Shown: piece after piece, positions 20,601 to 23,067 of the stretch
Layout: every line of letters begins with the position of its first letter
Position numbering within the stretch: the first letter of the stretch is position 1
NCBI GenBank assembly: GCA_965223115.1
Contig: OZ244982.1
Location: 2,557,636-2,621,635, forward strand
Reading direction: 5' to 3'
Length of the DNA stretch: 64,000 nucleotides
DNA from: Gammaproteobacteria bacterium
Lineage (GTDB): Bacteria; Pseudomonadota; Gammaproteobacteria; UBA4575
The notes under the pieces: generated by a model
What the model was told of the DNA's origin: nothing
Databases searched by the model: none
The model's input: only the letters and a program-made list of their open reading frames with translations
Program-made: the position numbers and the translations under genes

Positions 20601-23067
20601 CTTAACCCTAGCCTATAATGCGGTCAACAACATTACTTCCATTACGAATAATAACGACACGACACGTAATCAAAGCTTCACTTACGACAATCTTGATCGT
20701 CTTTTAAGTGGAAATGGCATTTATGGGAATCTAAGTTATACCTATGATGCGGTCGGGAATCGTTTGACCGAAACTAAAGGCAGCACGACTGATACATACA
20801 ATTATTCAAGCAGTAGTAATCAATTACAAGGTATCACGGGCGGACAAATTCTAAACTTTGGCCATGATGCGAATGGCAACATCACCAGTGCGGGCAGTGA
20901 CACGTTTACTGTGAGTGACGCCAATCGTATGAAAAACATGTCAGATGGGAGCACCACTATTCACTATACGTACAACGGTAAAGGCGAACGTGTTAAAAAA
21001 GTCAGTGGATCCACGACTACCATTTATCACTATGATCAATCAGGATTACTGATCGCAGAGTCTGATGCGCAAGCCAATTTTCAAATTGAATATGTTTATT
21101 TAAATGGACAACGTATTGCACTCATTGATGCAACGAGCACAGGCGGTTCATCCGGTTCAACTGAATACATCGTGGACAACTCCGACTCCAGTAATACATC
21201 TACTACAGGTCAATGGAATTCCGCCACATCCGGTACAGGAGATTATGAAGGGGTAGATGTACAAAAACACACCATGAACAGCAGTGAAACCATTATTGAT
21301 AATAATGATAATGCTTTTAGTATCGTAGGCACTTATACAACCTGGAATATTGGTTCCTGGTATGAAGGCAGTAACTTTCATCAACTCACGCCTAATTCAC
21401 CCGATAACAGCGGAACCTTTGTAGACAATGACAGCACGAGCACCTCATCAGTAGGTAGCTGGACTTCTTTTTCCTGTGGCGGATGTTATGGGTCTACTTT
21501 GCGCCAAGGGGTATCAGGTTCGGGTTCGGATACGTATACCTGGAATATCCCTATAACAGAAACCAAAGACTATCGTGTGTATGTACAGTGGACACAACAT
21601 TCGAATCGCGCTACCGATGCCCCCTACACAGTACATCATACCGCAGGCACTACCACCATAGATGTGAATCAACAAATCAATGGTAGTACATGGTATGAGC
21701 TTGGTACTTTTAATTTAGACAACTCCAGTAAAGTTGTTCTCAGCAATGATGCCAATGGTTATGTCATTGCGGATGCGGTGAAAGTTGTGGCGACCGATTC
21801 TTTAGGCAATGGTGCAACGTGGACGATTGATGTTAGTACACCAGGAAATTATGAAGTCTTCACAAAGTGGTCAACACATTCCAACCGGGCCACCAATGCA
21901 CAATATAAAATCTTTCATGAAAATGGAGATACAACGGTTACACAAAATCAGCAAATCAATGGGGAACAATGGATTTCATTAGGCACCTATGAATTTGCAC
22001 CCAACTCATCTAATAGTGTGTTTATTTCAGATCAAGCCAATGGCTACATTATTGTTGATTCCATTCGTCTTGTTCCAACACAGGATTTGAGTACCTTTAC
22101 CTGGAATCTCACCAATACAGGGACATTTAGTTACTTGGTCTATGCAAAATGGACACAAGATGCTTCACATTCCGCAGATGCGTCATACACCATTAATCAC
22201 ACAACTGGACAAGATACCGTTACCGTGAATCAACAAACCAATGGAACCGGTTGGAATTTATTAGGTACGTATGACATGAACGAAACCAGTTCGGTCACAC
22301 TAAATATGGGAACATTCGGTGATGTCATCGCGGATGCAATTAAATTTGTCGCTACAGCGACATCAGGTCAAGGGGTTCATTATATTCATACTAATCATTT
22401 AGATACGCCACAAGTCATCACAGATGGAAACAAGAACGTGGTATGGAGCGCAGACTACGAACCGTTTGGCACCACGAATATCACCGTTAATACCCTAACG
22501 AACAATCTTCGTTTCCCTGGACAATATGCTGATAGTGAAAGTGGTTTGAATTACAACTACTTTAGAGATTACAACTCAGGTTTGGGAAGATATATGCAGA
22601 GTGATCCGATTGGGTTGGAAGGTGGGGTTAACACGTATTCTTATGTAGGTTTAAATCCAGTTGTTCGTATAGATCAATTAGGTTTATTTGAACTTGTGAT
22701 ACCTTGGAATCAAACTACTATTCGGCCATTTCCTGGGCAGCCCATTGACCCAATGATTATGCCAATAACACCGGAACAGACTGGTGATATTCCATTGATT
22801 GGTGTTGAAAATCCACTAACTGGAACAAAAGAGTTTTGTCCTCGTAAATGTGGTGGCTTATTAAAGCAATTAAGAAAACATGAGAAAAAATTACAAGACT
22901 TTAAAACTAATCCTGGTATATTTGATAATAAAGGGTTTCTTGCGAATGCCGCACCAGATTTAAGAAAGAAAATTGTTGATGGAAGGATTAATAAGCTTGA
23001 AAGACAAATTAAAAATTTTAGAAAACAGTATGAAGCTTGTTTAAGGAAATCTGGATTTTCAATTTAA
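17671..23067 (+). CDS. rhs: Rhs/YD-repeat polymorphic toxin with signal peptide, three internal tandem ~90-aa repeats and a C-terminal variable toxin domain
   Basis: 1798 aa. N-terminus ENPIHPATGNKYQTETDY, many YD repeats (YTYDxxGN), Rhs core (HYIHTNHLDTPQVITDGNKNVVWSADYEPFGTT … DPIGLEGGVNTYSYVGLNPVVRIDQLGL), then a ~125-aa unique tail. Confidence 0.9.
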   Translation: MLFRAFAALLICALHLKKPSAVFATLFALFVVMNIHHSAYANSWVCEKVFVGPSGQSYSACNHAADACMSEGGITSPGFCYTVLSNGYSACPRPADGIYQWVTPDDTSGTAVRHHYACYLDASCPAPFIDFGSGACSPEYDPSKNLGPSRDVCLLENPIHPATGNKYQTETDYVAATGGLRFTRYYNSQSTKHFNESFGDKWSAEYFQHLKIVAGDFINVYHATGRKDMVQCPTVGSDCLTDNDVTFAIKKTSSGYTLTREDNVVEDYDSNGTLLSITNTHGQTQTLTYNGTTGLLETVTGPFNRTLSFTYDVNNRVITMIDPDNDIYTYAYTNDVLTSVTYPDNNSRTYHYEDTKWVHHLTGITDENNNRFSTYAYNTDGLATSSEHAGGANRVDVVYNTNGTTTATDALGASNTYTFEYKLGVSKTTDISGAQCGSCGSQAQAATYDTNGFVASRTDFNSNVTTYVHNSRGLQTSRTEASGSSKARTITTEWHSTLRLPTKITDHGKETTFTYNSTGALLTRTEKDLANNNTRTTTYTYDSNGNVLTINGPRTDVTDTTTFTYNSSGNRTSMKNALNQTTNYTSYDVHGRLLSMTDPNGVVTSMTYDARGRIKTNTVAGDTSSFDYDAAGNLTKITLPNASYLSYTYDNAHRLTQIKDNQNNKIIYTLDNDGNRTQEDVKDASGTLRRTQSRVFDQLSRMTQSIGGVNQTTVFGYDANGNQISVLDPLNRNSTSSYDALDRLITSTDPNSNNTSYAYDARDNLTSVTDARNLVTTYSYDGLDNLTQLVSPDTGTTTYTYDDAGNRLTQTDARNKTTTYTYDALNRLTSITYSDTTLNVAYTYDAGTNGKGRLTSMTDASGTTTYAYDAKGNVVTETKTISSQNYVTSYQYDDADNLTQITYPSGRTVDYSRNNIGQVTQVNTTFNGNTSVIANLISYLPFGPVKSLTLGSGLVTTLTYDQDYRLTDTVTGNSIQSLTLAYNAVNNITSITNNNDTTRNQSFTYDNLDRLLSGNGIYGNLSYTYDAVGNRLTETKGSTTDTYNYSSSSNQLQGITGGQILNFGHDANGNITSAGSDTFTVSDANRMKNMSDGSTTIHYTYNGKGERVKKVSGSTTTIYHYDQSGLLIAESDAQANFQIEYVYLNGQRIALIDATSTGGSSGSTEYIVDNSDSSNTSTTGQWNSATSGTGDYEGVDVQKHTMNSSETIIDNNDNAFSIVGTYTTWNIGSWYEGSNFHQLTPNSPDNSGTFVDNDSTSTSSVGSWTSFSCGGCYGSTLRQGVSGSGSDTYTWNIPITETKDYRVYVQWTQHSNRATDAPYTVHHTAGTTTIDVNQQINGSTWYELGTFNLDNSSKVVLSNDANGYVIADAVKVVATDSLGNGATWTIDVSTPGNYEVFTKWSTHSNRATNAQYKIFHENGDTTVTQNQQINGEQWISLGTYEFAPNSSNSVFISDQANGYIIVDSIRLVPTQDLSTFTWNLTNTGTFSYLVYAKWTQDASHSADASYTINHTTGQDTVTVNQQTNGTGWNLLGTYDMNETSSVTLNMGTFGDVIADAIKFVATATSGQGVHYIHTNHLDTPQVITDGNKNVVWSADYEPFGTTNITVNTLTNNLRFPGQYADSESGLNYNYFRDYNSGLGRYMQSDPIGLEGGVNTYSYVGLNPVVRIDQLGLFELVIPWNQTTIRPFPGQPIDPMIMPITPEQTGDIPLIGVENPLTGTKEFCPRKCGGLLKQLRKHEKKLQDFKTNPGIFDNKGFLANAAPDLRKKIVDGRINKLERQIKNFRKQYEACLRKSGFSI

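Follow-up and report, generated by a model that had tools for sequence, protein, structure and literature searches.

The DNA analysed here, a stretch of 64,000 nt (the window) covering positions 2,557,636 to 2,621,635 of contig OZ244982.1 in the Gammaproteobacteria bacterium assembly GCA_965223115.1, carries a gene for an Rhs/YD-repeat polymorphic toxin in which 410 amino acids (aa) are inserted between the last strand of the YD-repeat shell and the conserved C-terminal core. The insert is a triple Golvesin_C module whose domain halves are segregated, three N-terminal halves being followed by three C-terminal ones (NNNCCC). Both the site and this layout are conserved in relatives, in some of which the gene is split exactly at the insertion loop. 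We believe, with a probability of roughly 0.6, that the product is a Sec-exported Rhs cocoon toxin, not dependent on a type VI secretion system (T6SS), whose Golvesin_C domains would be nested in one another outside the shell and act as a glycan-binding adhesin or receptor. The gene, the parts of its product and the adjoining open reading frame (ORF) are as follows, in window positions:

17671..23067, plus strand, Rhs/YD-repeat polymorphic toxin gene, 1798 aa (ORF list, translation, Pfam and NCBIfam)
17671..17793, plus strand, signal-peptide-like N-terminus, aa 1-41 (hydropathy and sequence, by eye)
17794..18138, plus strand, Cys-rich region with nine Cys, aa 42-156 (Cys positions)
18139..18348, plus strand, DUF6531, preceding the YD shell, aa 157-226 (Pfam, E=2.5e-12)
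18349..21141, plus strand, YD-repeat shell with last strand EYVYLNGQRIALID, aa 227-1157 (Pfam, NCBIfam and alignment to solved cocoons)
21142..22371, plus strand, 410-aa insertion, the triple Golvesin_C module, 44.3 kDa, isoelectric point (pI) 4.3, aa 1158-1567 (insert-free relatives and Pfam)
22372..22686, plus strand, Rhs-associated core/aspartyl autoprotease plug, DPIGL...IDQLGL, aa 1568-1672 (Pfam, TIGR03696 and motif reading)
22687..23064, plus strand, predicted C-terminal toxin domain, 14.4 kDa, pI 9.75, aa 1673-1798 (126-aa basic tail after the core)
23037..23381, plus strand, candidate immunity gene, 114 aa, pI 4.25 (overlaps the 3' end and stop codon of the toxin gene)

The toxin reading frame is intact, and a GGGGGA ribosome-binding site lies 7 nt before its ATG. 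That it encodes an Rhs toxin had been proposed in an earlier reading made from the letters and ORF translations (hereafter the sequence-only reading), and this identity is confirmed here. Pfam found RHS_repeat in 15 stretches (E=4.5e-88) and NCBIfam YD_repeat_2x (TIGR01643, E=7.8e-49); the core matched the RHS family PF03527 at aa 1569-1601 (E=2.2e-9) and Rhs_assc_core TIGR03696 at aa 1596-1672 (E=4e-22); and the solved Rhs cocoons 8h8a, 7q97, 8qja and 8cp6 aligned with the shell. DUF6531 also heads the shell genes of the relatives with a split gene. The autoprotease stretch reads 'SDPIGLEGGVNTYSYVGLNPVVRIDQLGL', with both Asp kept and Q replacing P in the second motif. By homology to solved Rhs proteins (PMC8765631), the cocoon would be closed, would encapsulate a small basic toxin, would cleave it at the DPIGL...IDQLGL site and would release it after autoproteolysis. 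The toxin tail is unlike the C-terminus of the closest relative (P0124), and a word-indexed homology search gave zero homologues for it and Pfam no family above noise. The 114-aa ORF, a candidate immunity gene by its position, is acidic and so complementary in charge to the basic toxin, and it matched no Pfam family. Apart from noise-level Prefoldin matches, which suggest coiled coil, Pfam had nothing for the Cys-rich N-terminus, the toxin or the immunity candidate.

The 410-aa block is a genuine insertion: in close relatives, nothing but a 5-residue turn separates shell from core. In the window protein it is flanked by '...EYVYLNGQRIALID' and 'VHYIHTNHLDTPQVITD...WSADYEPFG', just as the sequence-only reading had described when it placed extra domains between the last YD repeats and the core (21150-22380, or aa 1160-1570). 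An exhaustive HMMER search of 1.84 billion representatives retrieved insert-free relatives (P0191, P0229 and P0228) that read '...EYVYLSGQRLALINSTGT' before and 'YYIHSNHLDTPQVITD' after the site, with a 5-aa turn there. P0191 is 47% identical to the window protein in the shell and 80% in the core, and the cores of P0229 and P0228 are 63-68% identical to that of the window. In keeping with these boundaries, a deletion construct (aa 1001-1156 joined to aa 1565-1690) aligned unbroken to the cocoons 8H8A and 7Q97, in which a short turn, a few residues in length, links the strands equivalent to 'YVYLNGQRIALID' and 'HYIHTNHLDTPQ'. SGS1, a mosquito salivary Rhs/YD cocoon, also matched the shell-core junction by sequence, and TccC2 and TccC3 matched the core weakly. 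The 44-kDa module would be grafted into the hairpin that joins the final strand of the outer wall to the core, which spirals inward to seal the cocoon (PMC8765631).

Pfam assigned the inserted domains to Golvesin_C (PF25275) in three stretches, with E=3.2e-71 and 238 bits against a cut-off of 31.6, and the best stretch (aa 1250-1373) spans positions 2-131 of the 132 in the profile. The sequence-only reading had pointed to a likeness to golvesin-C/Xly-type domains and proposed a Pfam check of about aa 1170-1570; the check returned this very family. The alternative that the repeats are divergent YD repeats was discarded, since the RHS_repeat stretches end before the insert. The sole solved structure matched by sequence was the C-terminal module of the Paenibacillus xanthan lyase 6F2P (residues 906-1038, E=1e-19). 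Foldseek, run with the modelled domain made of the third N-half and the first C-half (N3+C1, below), superposed 6F2P at 2.1 Å root-mean-square deviation over 137 columns and 38% identity. With template modelling (TM) scores of 0.65-0.71, it also retrieved members of carbohydrate-binding module (CBM) families, namely CBM6 2CDP and CBM35 2W1W, 2WZ8 and 2W47, together with the Microbacterium xanthan-binding module 7EHG (MiXBM). Cry toxin domain III was among the fold matches as well. As judged from the model, the inserted domain is a beta-sandwich of CBM6/CBM35-like fold; InterPro lists Golvesin_C as IPR033803, 'CBM6-CBM35-CBM36_like_2'. We also considered whether the 6F2P module is CBM84, and rejected this, CBM84 belonging to another protein, the glycoside hydrolase family 9 xanthanase PspXan9 (6FHJ); 6FHJ was not among the PDB sequence-search matches of the insert. 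For two Bacteroides proteins with IPR033803 domains, Cbeg4 and Cbeg5, glycan arrays showed binding to a defined N-glycan motif (PMC9166713), and by analogy with these family members the window module may bind carbohydrate.

Two sets of repeats make up the insert. Three repeats of ~92 aa (aa 1286-1376, 1379-1471 and 1473-1563) are 36-47% identical in pairwise comparisons, with alignment z-scores of 14-20 against shuffled sequences; as DNA they are only 52-63% identical and are therefore old duplicates. The first ~125 aa of the insert hold three further repeats of ~40 aa with the pattern 'xVDNxD...G.W..S....Y.G' (aa 1165-1206, 1207-1248 and 1249-1285; 33-38% identical, z = 4.5-5.8). The ~40-aa repeats match the opening ~40 positions of the Golvesin_C profile and the ~92-aa repeats the remainder; the former are, by profile alignment, N-terminal halves of the same domain family. 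Thus, of the three tandem ~90-aa domains put forward in the sequence-only reading, the three homologous repeats stand, but the domains are three of ~130 aa with their halves segregated. The order is N1-N2-N3-C1-C2-C3, in which only N3+C1 (aa 1249-1376) forms a contiguous canonical domain. The half-domains, located with Pfam and with our own hidden Markov models (HMMs) of the N-half and C-half, are:

21163..21288, plus strand, N1 half-domain, aa 1165-1206, predicted partner C3 (N-half HMM; four strands)
21289..21414, plus strand, N2 half-domain, aa 1207-1248, predicted partner C2 (N-half HMM; models)
21415..21525, plus strand, N3 half-domain, aa 1249-1285, contiguous with C1 (Pfam, 6F2P match and Foldseek)
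21526..21798, plus strand, C1 half-domain, aa 1286-1376 (Pfam and C-half HMM)
21805..22083, plus strand, C2 half-domain, aa 1379-1471 (Pfam and C-half HMM)
22087..22359, plus strand, C3 half-domain, aa 1473-1563, family motif altered (sequence and C-half HMM)

An AlphaFold model of aa 1134-1610, built from a 49-sequence alignment, reached a mean predicted local distance difference test (pLDDT) score of 85.9 and a predicted TM score (pTM) of 0.69, which is high for a multi-domain stretch. N1 and N2 formed four strands each at a mean pLDDT of ~85 (74-90 for N1). In a second AlphaFold model, of N1-N2-N3-C1 alone, N3+C1 stayed at pLDDT 85-98; N1 and N2, deprived of C2 and C3, dropped to a mean of ~62 (51-70 for N1) and lost half of their strands. 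The closest full-length relative, P0124 (55% identical), has an NNCC layout, and its halves best match N1, N3, C1 and C3, although the call of N3 over N2 is weak. The extra pair of the window protein would therefore be N2 + C2, the predicted middle domain. In the more distant relatives P0126 and P0131, a half-by-half assignment was not resolvable. On the basis of the parity of N and C counts in most relatives, the pTM of the full-insert model, the confidence that N1 and N2 lose without C2 and C3, and the missing counterparts of N2 and C2 in P0124, the simplest structural reading is probably a nesting of the form N1[N2[N3-C1]C2]C3. In such an arrangement, each inner Golvesin_C domain would sit in a loop between the N-half and the C-half of the next outer domain.

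The two half-domain HMMs were used to score all retrieved proteins and loci. An NNNCCC layout was found in 44 of the 120 first matches and in many loci and representatives besides, and complete proteins with NNCC, NNNNCCCC and ~6N+6C layouts are also present. N and C halves are equal in number in most relatives. Non-Rhs enzymes (amidases, deacetylases and others) carry the ordinary NCNCNC tandem. The site search in other Rhs proteins showed that the architecture is not the oddity that the sequence-only reading had implied: dozens of 50%-identity clusters have the shell-Golvesin-core layout, and 12 representatives with shell-NNNCCC-core (P0126, P0130-P0134, P0137, P0138 and others) are 35-43% identical end to end. 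The same insertion site is occupied by one copy in four forms, by two copies in five and by up to ~8 copies, and a few relatives have ordinary tandem copies there. Among GTDB genomes, the fused forms occur in MAGs (metagenome-assembled genomes) or isolates of Pseudomonadales, Halieaceae, an unclassified Gammaproteobacteria bacterium, two 'beta proteobacterium' MAGs and Usitatibacteraceae. In L011 (7860-15197, a Nitrosomonadaceae MAG) and in P0147, NNNCCC stands at the N-terminus, after the signal peptide and before the shell, the L011-type protein having ~2,440 aa with NNNCCC and then YD shell and core in one chain. Relative to the shell, this is a third position for the module, and the block therefore behaves as a movable unit. 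Proteins of ~1,690 aa ending in NNNNCCCC were observed in Candidatus Thiodiazotropha and Sedimenticolaceae MAGs (L020 at 4425-9503, L021 at 4638-9650, P0140 and P0179). Our HMMs detected neither YD shell nor Rhs core in these four; Rhs proteins are thus not the only carriers of the probably nested block.

In seven loci (L001, L002, L003, L008, L009, L010 and L019), from Bordetella-like, Burkholderiales, Zoogloeaceae, Gemmatimonadaceae and Dehalococcoidia MAGs or metagenome contigs, the gene is split exactly at the insertion loop. The shell protein of ~1220 aa has its own signal-like N-terminus and ends in '...REY[IL]YLGDxPVxVxQ' immediately before the stop codon. The second gene, which overlaps or abuts the first, encodes a classic signal peptide (e.g. 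MKTKLLALALLASAQAFAQ followed by TE), NNNCCC, core and toxin, so that the module is always on the core-toxin chain. An artefact or pseudogene was rejected as the explanation, given the intact window ORF and a stop codon that recurs at one and the same residue across the seven independent loci. This recurrence in independent assemblies argues against error or decay and shows that continuity of the chain at the loop is dispensable.

The split form and the copy numbers bear on the possibility that the module is mainly non-glycan in function, either binding a protein receptor, or acting as a core-docking handle for assembly or chaperoning in two-chain relatives, or gating toxin release. Insertion and splitting occur precisely at the point from which the chain runs inward and closes the cocoon, the module of split relatives never leaves the core-toxin chain, the Cry toxin domain is among the fold matches and the C3 motif is degenerate. 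However, close relatives with 0, 1, 2 or 3 copies at the site show that the module is not needed for closure, a block preceding the shell (L011, P0147) fits an autonomous binding unit better than a gate, and the closest solved and the characterised relatives bind carbohydrate. We regard a non-glycan role as improbable. The data favour an autonomous binding unit, because the copy number at one and the same site goes from 0 to ~8 and the block can be N-terminal, and because the protein motifs were kept while the DNA repeats diverged, in a family whose characterised relatives bind carbohydrate.

Additional second-chain genes, again complete, or orphan fragments are often found behind the split pair (five in L005; also in L002, L006 and L034). 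Tandem arrays of up to 5 complete signal peptide-NNNCCC-core-toxin genes were seen in L005 (2-9875), L006, L034 and L002 (12503-20218), the last including an rve-family transposase, and many arrays also hold frameshifted or truncated fragments that start inside the N or C arrays. They resemble an orphan-cassette system whose swappable unit includes the lectin module. P0102 is a comparable fragment: its 418 aa comprise two C-halves and an Rhs core and end in a Gly-rich C-terminus unlike that of the window protein, and it is 51-57% identical to C2-C3-core of the latter; the source genome probably holds this second, truncated, orphan-like cassette elsewhere. Such arrays and P0102 are what would be expected if the repeats were kept mainly as a DNA homology platform for exchanging toxin cassettes (C-terminal displacement), with little function as protein. 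We find this highly improbable, since repeats 52-63% identical as DNA are poor substrates for homologous recombination, the protein motifs and fold are strongly conserved across phyla, and insertion-free Rhs genes swap toxins through the core alone.

Taken with the split loci, the arrays also suggest, tentatively and as something we would not yet count on, that the loop carrying the recursively nested block is a seam of the cocoon, and that many Betaproteobacteria-type genomes have a true binary toxin. Its reusable Sec-exported shell would be loaded after export by interchangeable signal peptide-lectin-plug-toxin proteins from the tandem arrays.

As to the route of export of the window protein, the sequence-only reading had described a signal peptide followed by a Cys-rich region, with no PAAR or VgrG nearby, and our inspection agrees on each point. 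Two hydrophobic stretches end in 'SAYA' followed by NS, nine Cys lie between aa 46 and 153, and relatives start with similar signal-like leaders. The Cys-rich region, which has no Pfam match, may be disulfide-bonded, as would fit an exported protein. Pfam showed no PAAR, prePAAR or VgrG-interacting domain in the whole protein or in aa 1-156, and no PAAR, VgrG or other T6SS family among the 37 ORFs tested across the window, which show only housekeeping and island genes. Sec export is favoured because of the signal-like leader and the absence of PAAR, VgrG and T6SS genes among the tested ORFs. In the split locus L001, a secretin/T2SSE/T2SSF/pseudopilin/PilN-like cluster (1-5634) lies immediately upstream of the shell gene in divergent orientation. 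This type II secretion system (T2SS)- or pilus-like cluster could be the outer-membrane export route or a coincidence, and we mention it as a lead.

Our preferred reading, a Sec-exported cocoon with an external glycan-binding module, would work as follows. The module would lie outside the shell, beside the plug end, because a 44-kDa block appears too large to share the cavity of an Rhs cocoon (PMC8765631) with a 14.4-kDa toxin and because a separately exported chain starts at this site in relatives. Being trivalent, it would bind surface polysaccharide of the target (or producer) cell and concentrate or orient the cocoon, and this holding at the cell surface would precede release of the auto-cleaved C-terminal toxin. 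The glycan might instead belong wholly to the producer, the module anchoring the toxin to its own envelope or extracellular polysaccharide for retention or display, as WapA-type cell-wall-binding domains do. In Zhang et al. (2012; PMC3482391), several domains of Sec/T2SS-exported polymorphic toxins that bind carbohydrate or peptidoglycan are given this anchoring function; Golvesin_C domains of non-Rhs proteins are fused to cell-wall or exopolysaccharide enzymes (amidase_2, polysaccharide deacetylase, xanthan lyase); and among the window ORFs tested there is no outer-membrane release system beside the gene. The same authors, however, propose target contact for lectin domains located among RHS repeats or near the toxin (PMC3482391), and the window module adjoins the plug and toxin end, not the N-terminus. 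Although the present data fit either source of the ligand, we consider anchoring to the producer unlikely.

Several observations weigh against the preferred reading. C3 has WTQDASHSADASY in place of W-T-x-H-x-N-R-A-[TS]-[ND]-A-x-Y and GTFGDVIADA in place of ANGYVIADA; having lost the conserved H-x-N-R-A motif, it may have a changed or lost ligand site and be non-binding. This change is common to the close relatives P0156 and P0102, whereas distant homologues keep the canonical motif. The Golvesin_C subfamily of the insert has no known ligand. The N1-C3 and N2-C2 pairings and the external position were deduced from indirect evidence. About 8 of ~75 complete relatives are unbalanced by one half (NNCCC or NNNCC), which suggests that strict pairing is not obligatory or that those genes are decaying. 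The second autoprotease motif is IDQLGL and not DPxGL, so that cleavage is a prediction. The signal peptide is atypical in having two hydrophobic segments and was read by eye, and no outer-membrane export route was identified in the window. Finally, toxin and immunity candidate are without homologues that would point to a bacterial or a eukaryotic target.

The principle of a decorated cocoon has precedents. SGS1 (PDB 8FJP) has a CBM and a lectin carbohydrate-recognition domain inserted in the YD shell, on its exterior, for which co-operative polysaccharide binding was proposed; the same work counts a beta-propeller (in TcB) and an NHL domain (in teneurin) as receptor domains and, next to these, gives the lectin and olfactomedin domains found in the partner Lphn1 (PMC9935623). 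SGS1 resembles the window protein in being a cocoon decorated with receptor domains, but it is eukaryotic, has ~3,400 aa and also carries beta-propellers, and its domains are single, lie mid-shell and were missed by sequence analysis (PMC9935623), whereas those of the window protein are three in one pre-core loop in NNNCCC order. For Sec/T2SS-exported toxins, Zhang, de Souza, Anantharaman, Iyer and Aravind described lectin domains as 'embedded among the RHS repeats'. Those toxins have RHS repeats, as does the window protein, and a signal-peptide leader, a variable C-terminal toxin and an immunity gene, all three of which are putative in the window protein (PMC3482391); Golvesin_C is not among the domains listed there, nor are the fixed insertion point, the nesting and the split-gene form described. 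TcB-TcC is a two-polypeptide cocoon with a shell-associated beta-propeller on TcB, and the C-terminal aspartyl autoprotease region is shared, as the encapsulated toxin would be (PMC8765631). However, the window protein is a single chain, and the split relatives break right before the core, their second chain adds no outer wall and each of their chains has a Sec signal. No TcA-like partner or beta-propeller was found in the protein or the tested window ORFs, and no TcA-like gene in two annotated split loci. The T6SS effectors RhsA of P. protegens, Rhs1 (7Q97), RhsP (8H8A) and Tse5 resemble the window protein in YD shell, conserved core, DPxGL-type motif and an N-terminal region of DUF6531 type, but the window protein has a signal-like, Cys-rich N-terminus instead of PAAR, prePAAR or a VgrG-binding region, and 410 residues where the solved effectors have a turn of 5-10. 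The 6F2P module and the true lectins Cbeg4 and Cbeg5 are of the same Pfam family and fold, although their domains are contiguous, single or in tandem (NCNC), on enzymes or small lectins, and the halves in the Rhs toxin are segregated.

The sequence-only reading had asked whether such an architecture is already a described Rhs subclass: in principle it is, through SGS1 and the toxins of Zhang et al., but not for the Golvesin_C family. In the literature searched, no paper brings 'golvesin' and 'Rhs' together, and no description was found of the fixed pre-core insertion site, of NNNCCC or of the split-gene form. The architecture is common in databases and was anticipated conceptually, and the interleaved domains and the two-protein seam are apparently undescribed. 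If nested as proposed, NNNCCC would be an unusually clean case of recursive domain insertion. The finding extends a principle seen in SGS1, TcB and teneurins and overturns nothing in current understanding.

Bacterial Rhs toxins have been studied mechanistically for the most part as T6SS-delivered effectors. To our knowledge, little has been learned of how signal-peptide Rhs toxins find and enter their targets. By its fixed position beside the plug, a conserved and multivalent CBM-type module offers a testable handle on the glycan and the cell bound. The split relatives show that cocoon wall and plug-toxin unit can be separate exported polypeptides and, if these chains assemble after export, they bear on how a cocoon folds around its cargo. 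The loop may also be a natural place at which Rhs- or Tc-like containers could be engineered to carry new binding domains or cargo. Should the binary-toxin reading be true, polymorphic Rhs toxins would have a new mode of construction, and there would be a class of delivery that is glycan-targeted and independent of T6SS.

The gene lies in an island next to a tRNA-Phe gene, for which the relevant features are:

12010..12085, plus strand, tRNA-Phe, the island integration site (ARAGORN)
17266..17421, plus strand, left direct repeat of ~155 nt, ending in a degenerate copy of a tRNA-Phe segment (repeat comparison)
23421..23573, plus strand, right direct repeat, ending in a perfect 29-nt copy of tRNA-Phe positions 12041-12069 (repeat comparison)

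The direct repeats are ~85% identical and bracket a unit of 6.15 kb that holds only the Rhs gene and the 114-aa acidic ORF. The 29-nt tRNA segment is perfect at 23545-23573 and degenerate (72% identical) at 17393-17421. Integrase fragments lie beside the tRNA on the minus strand (12092-12661 and 12674-13126), and the G+C content of the Rhs region is 42% against ~36% in the surroundings. Two integrated elements appear to lie in tandem at tRNA-Phe (12010-23573). Element A (~12070-17421) comprises the split integrase fragments, two ORFs for small membrane proteins and an NYN-domain protein (15342-16130); in element B (17422-23573) there are only the Rhs gene and the putative immunity gene, without integrase. 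Both end in the related ~155-nt sequence followed by the 29-nt copy of the internal tRNA-Phe segment. Upstream, a 16-nt sequence at the start of the tRNA-Phe gene (TAATAATTTGGCCAGG, 12001-12016) is repeated at 11900-11915, and is followed there by a degenerate tRNA-like stretch with an CTGAAAATCCT anticodon-loop-like segment (11951-11979), for which ARAGORN makes no call; the stretch 11895-12000 may be what is left of a tRNA copy, or of an attachment site formerly in use.

Past the island, two secreted-looking ORFs without Pfam match were noted, one of 116 aa rich in His, Tyr and Arg with runs of HH, HY and RH (24675-25025), and one of 182 aa rich in Glu, Arg and Lys (26267-26815), built on a 33-nt periodic DNA repeat present in 6 copies (26384-26694). 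Further on, a minus-strand cluster of four genes (27762-31450) for a protein of the thermostable-hemolysin family (T_hemolysin), an AMP-binding enzyme, an iron enzyme of Haem_oxygenase_2 type and a short-chain dehydrogenase adjoins a two-component system (31584-33519), and looks like an operon for small-molecule or lipid biosynthesis.

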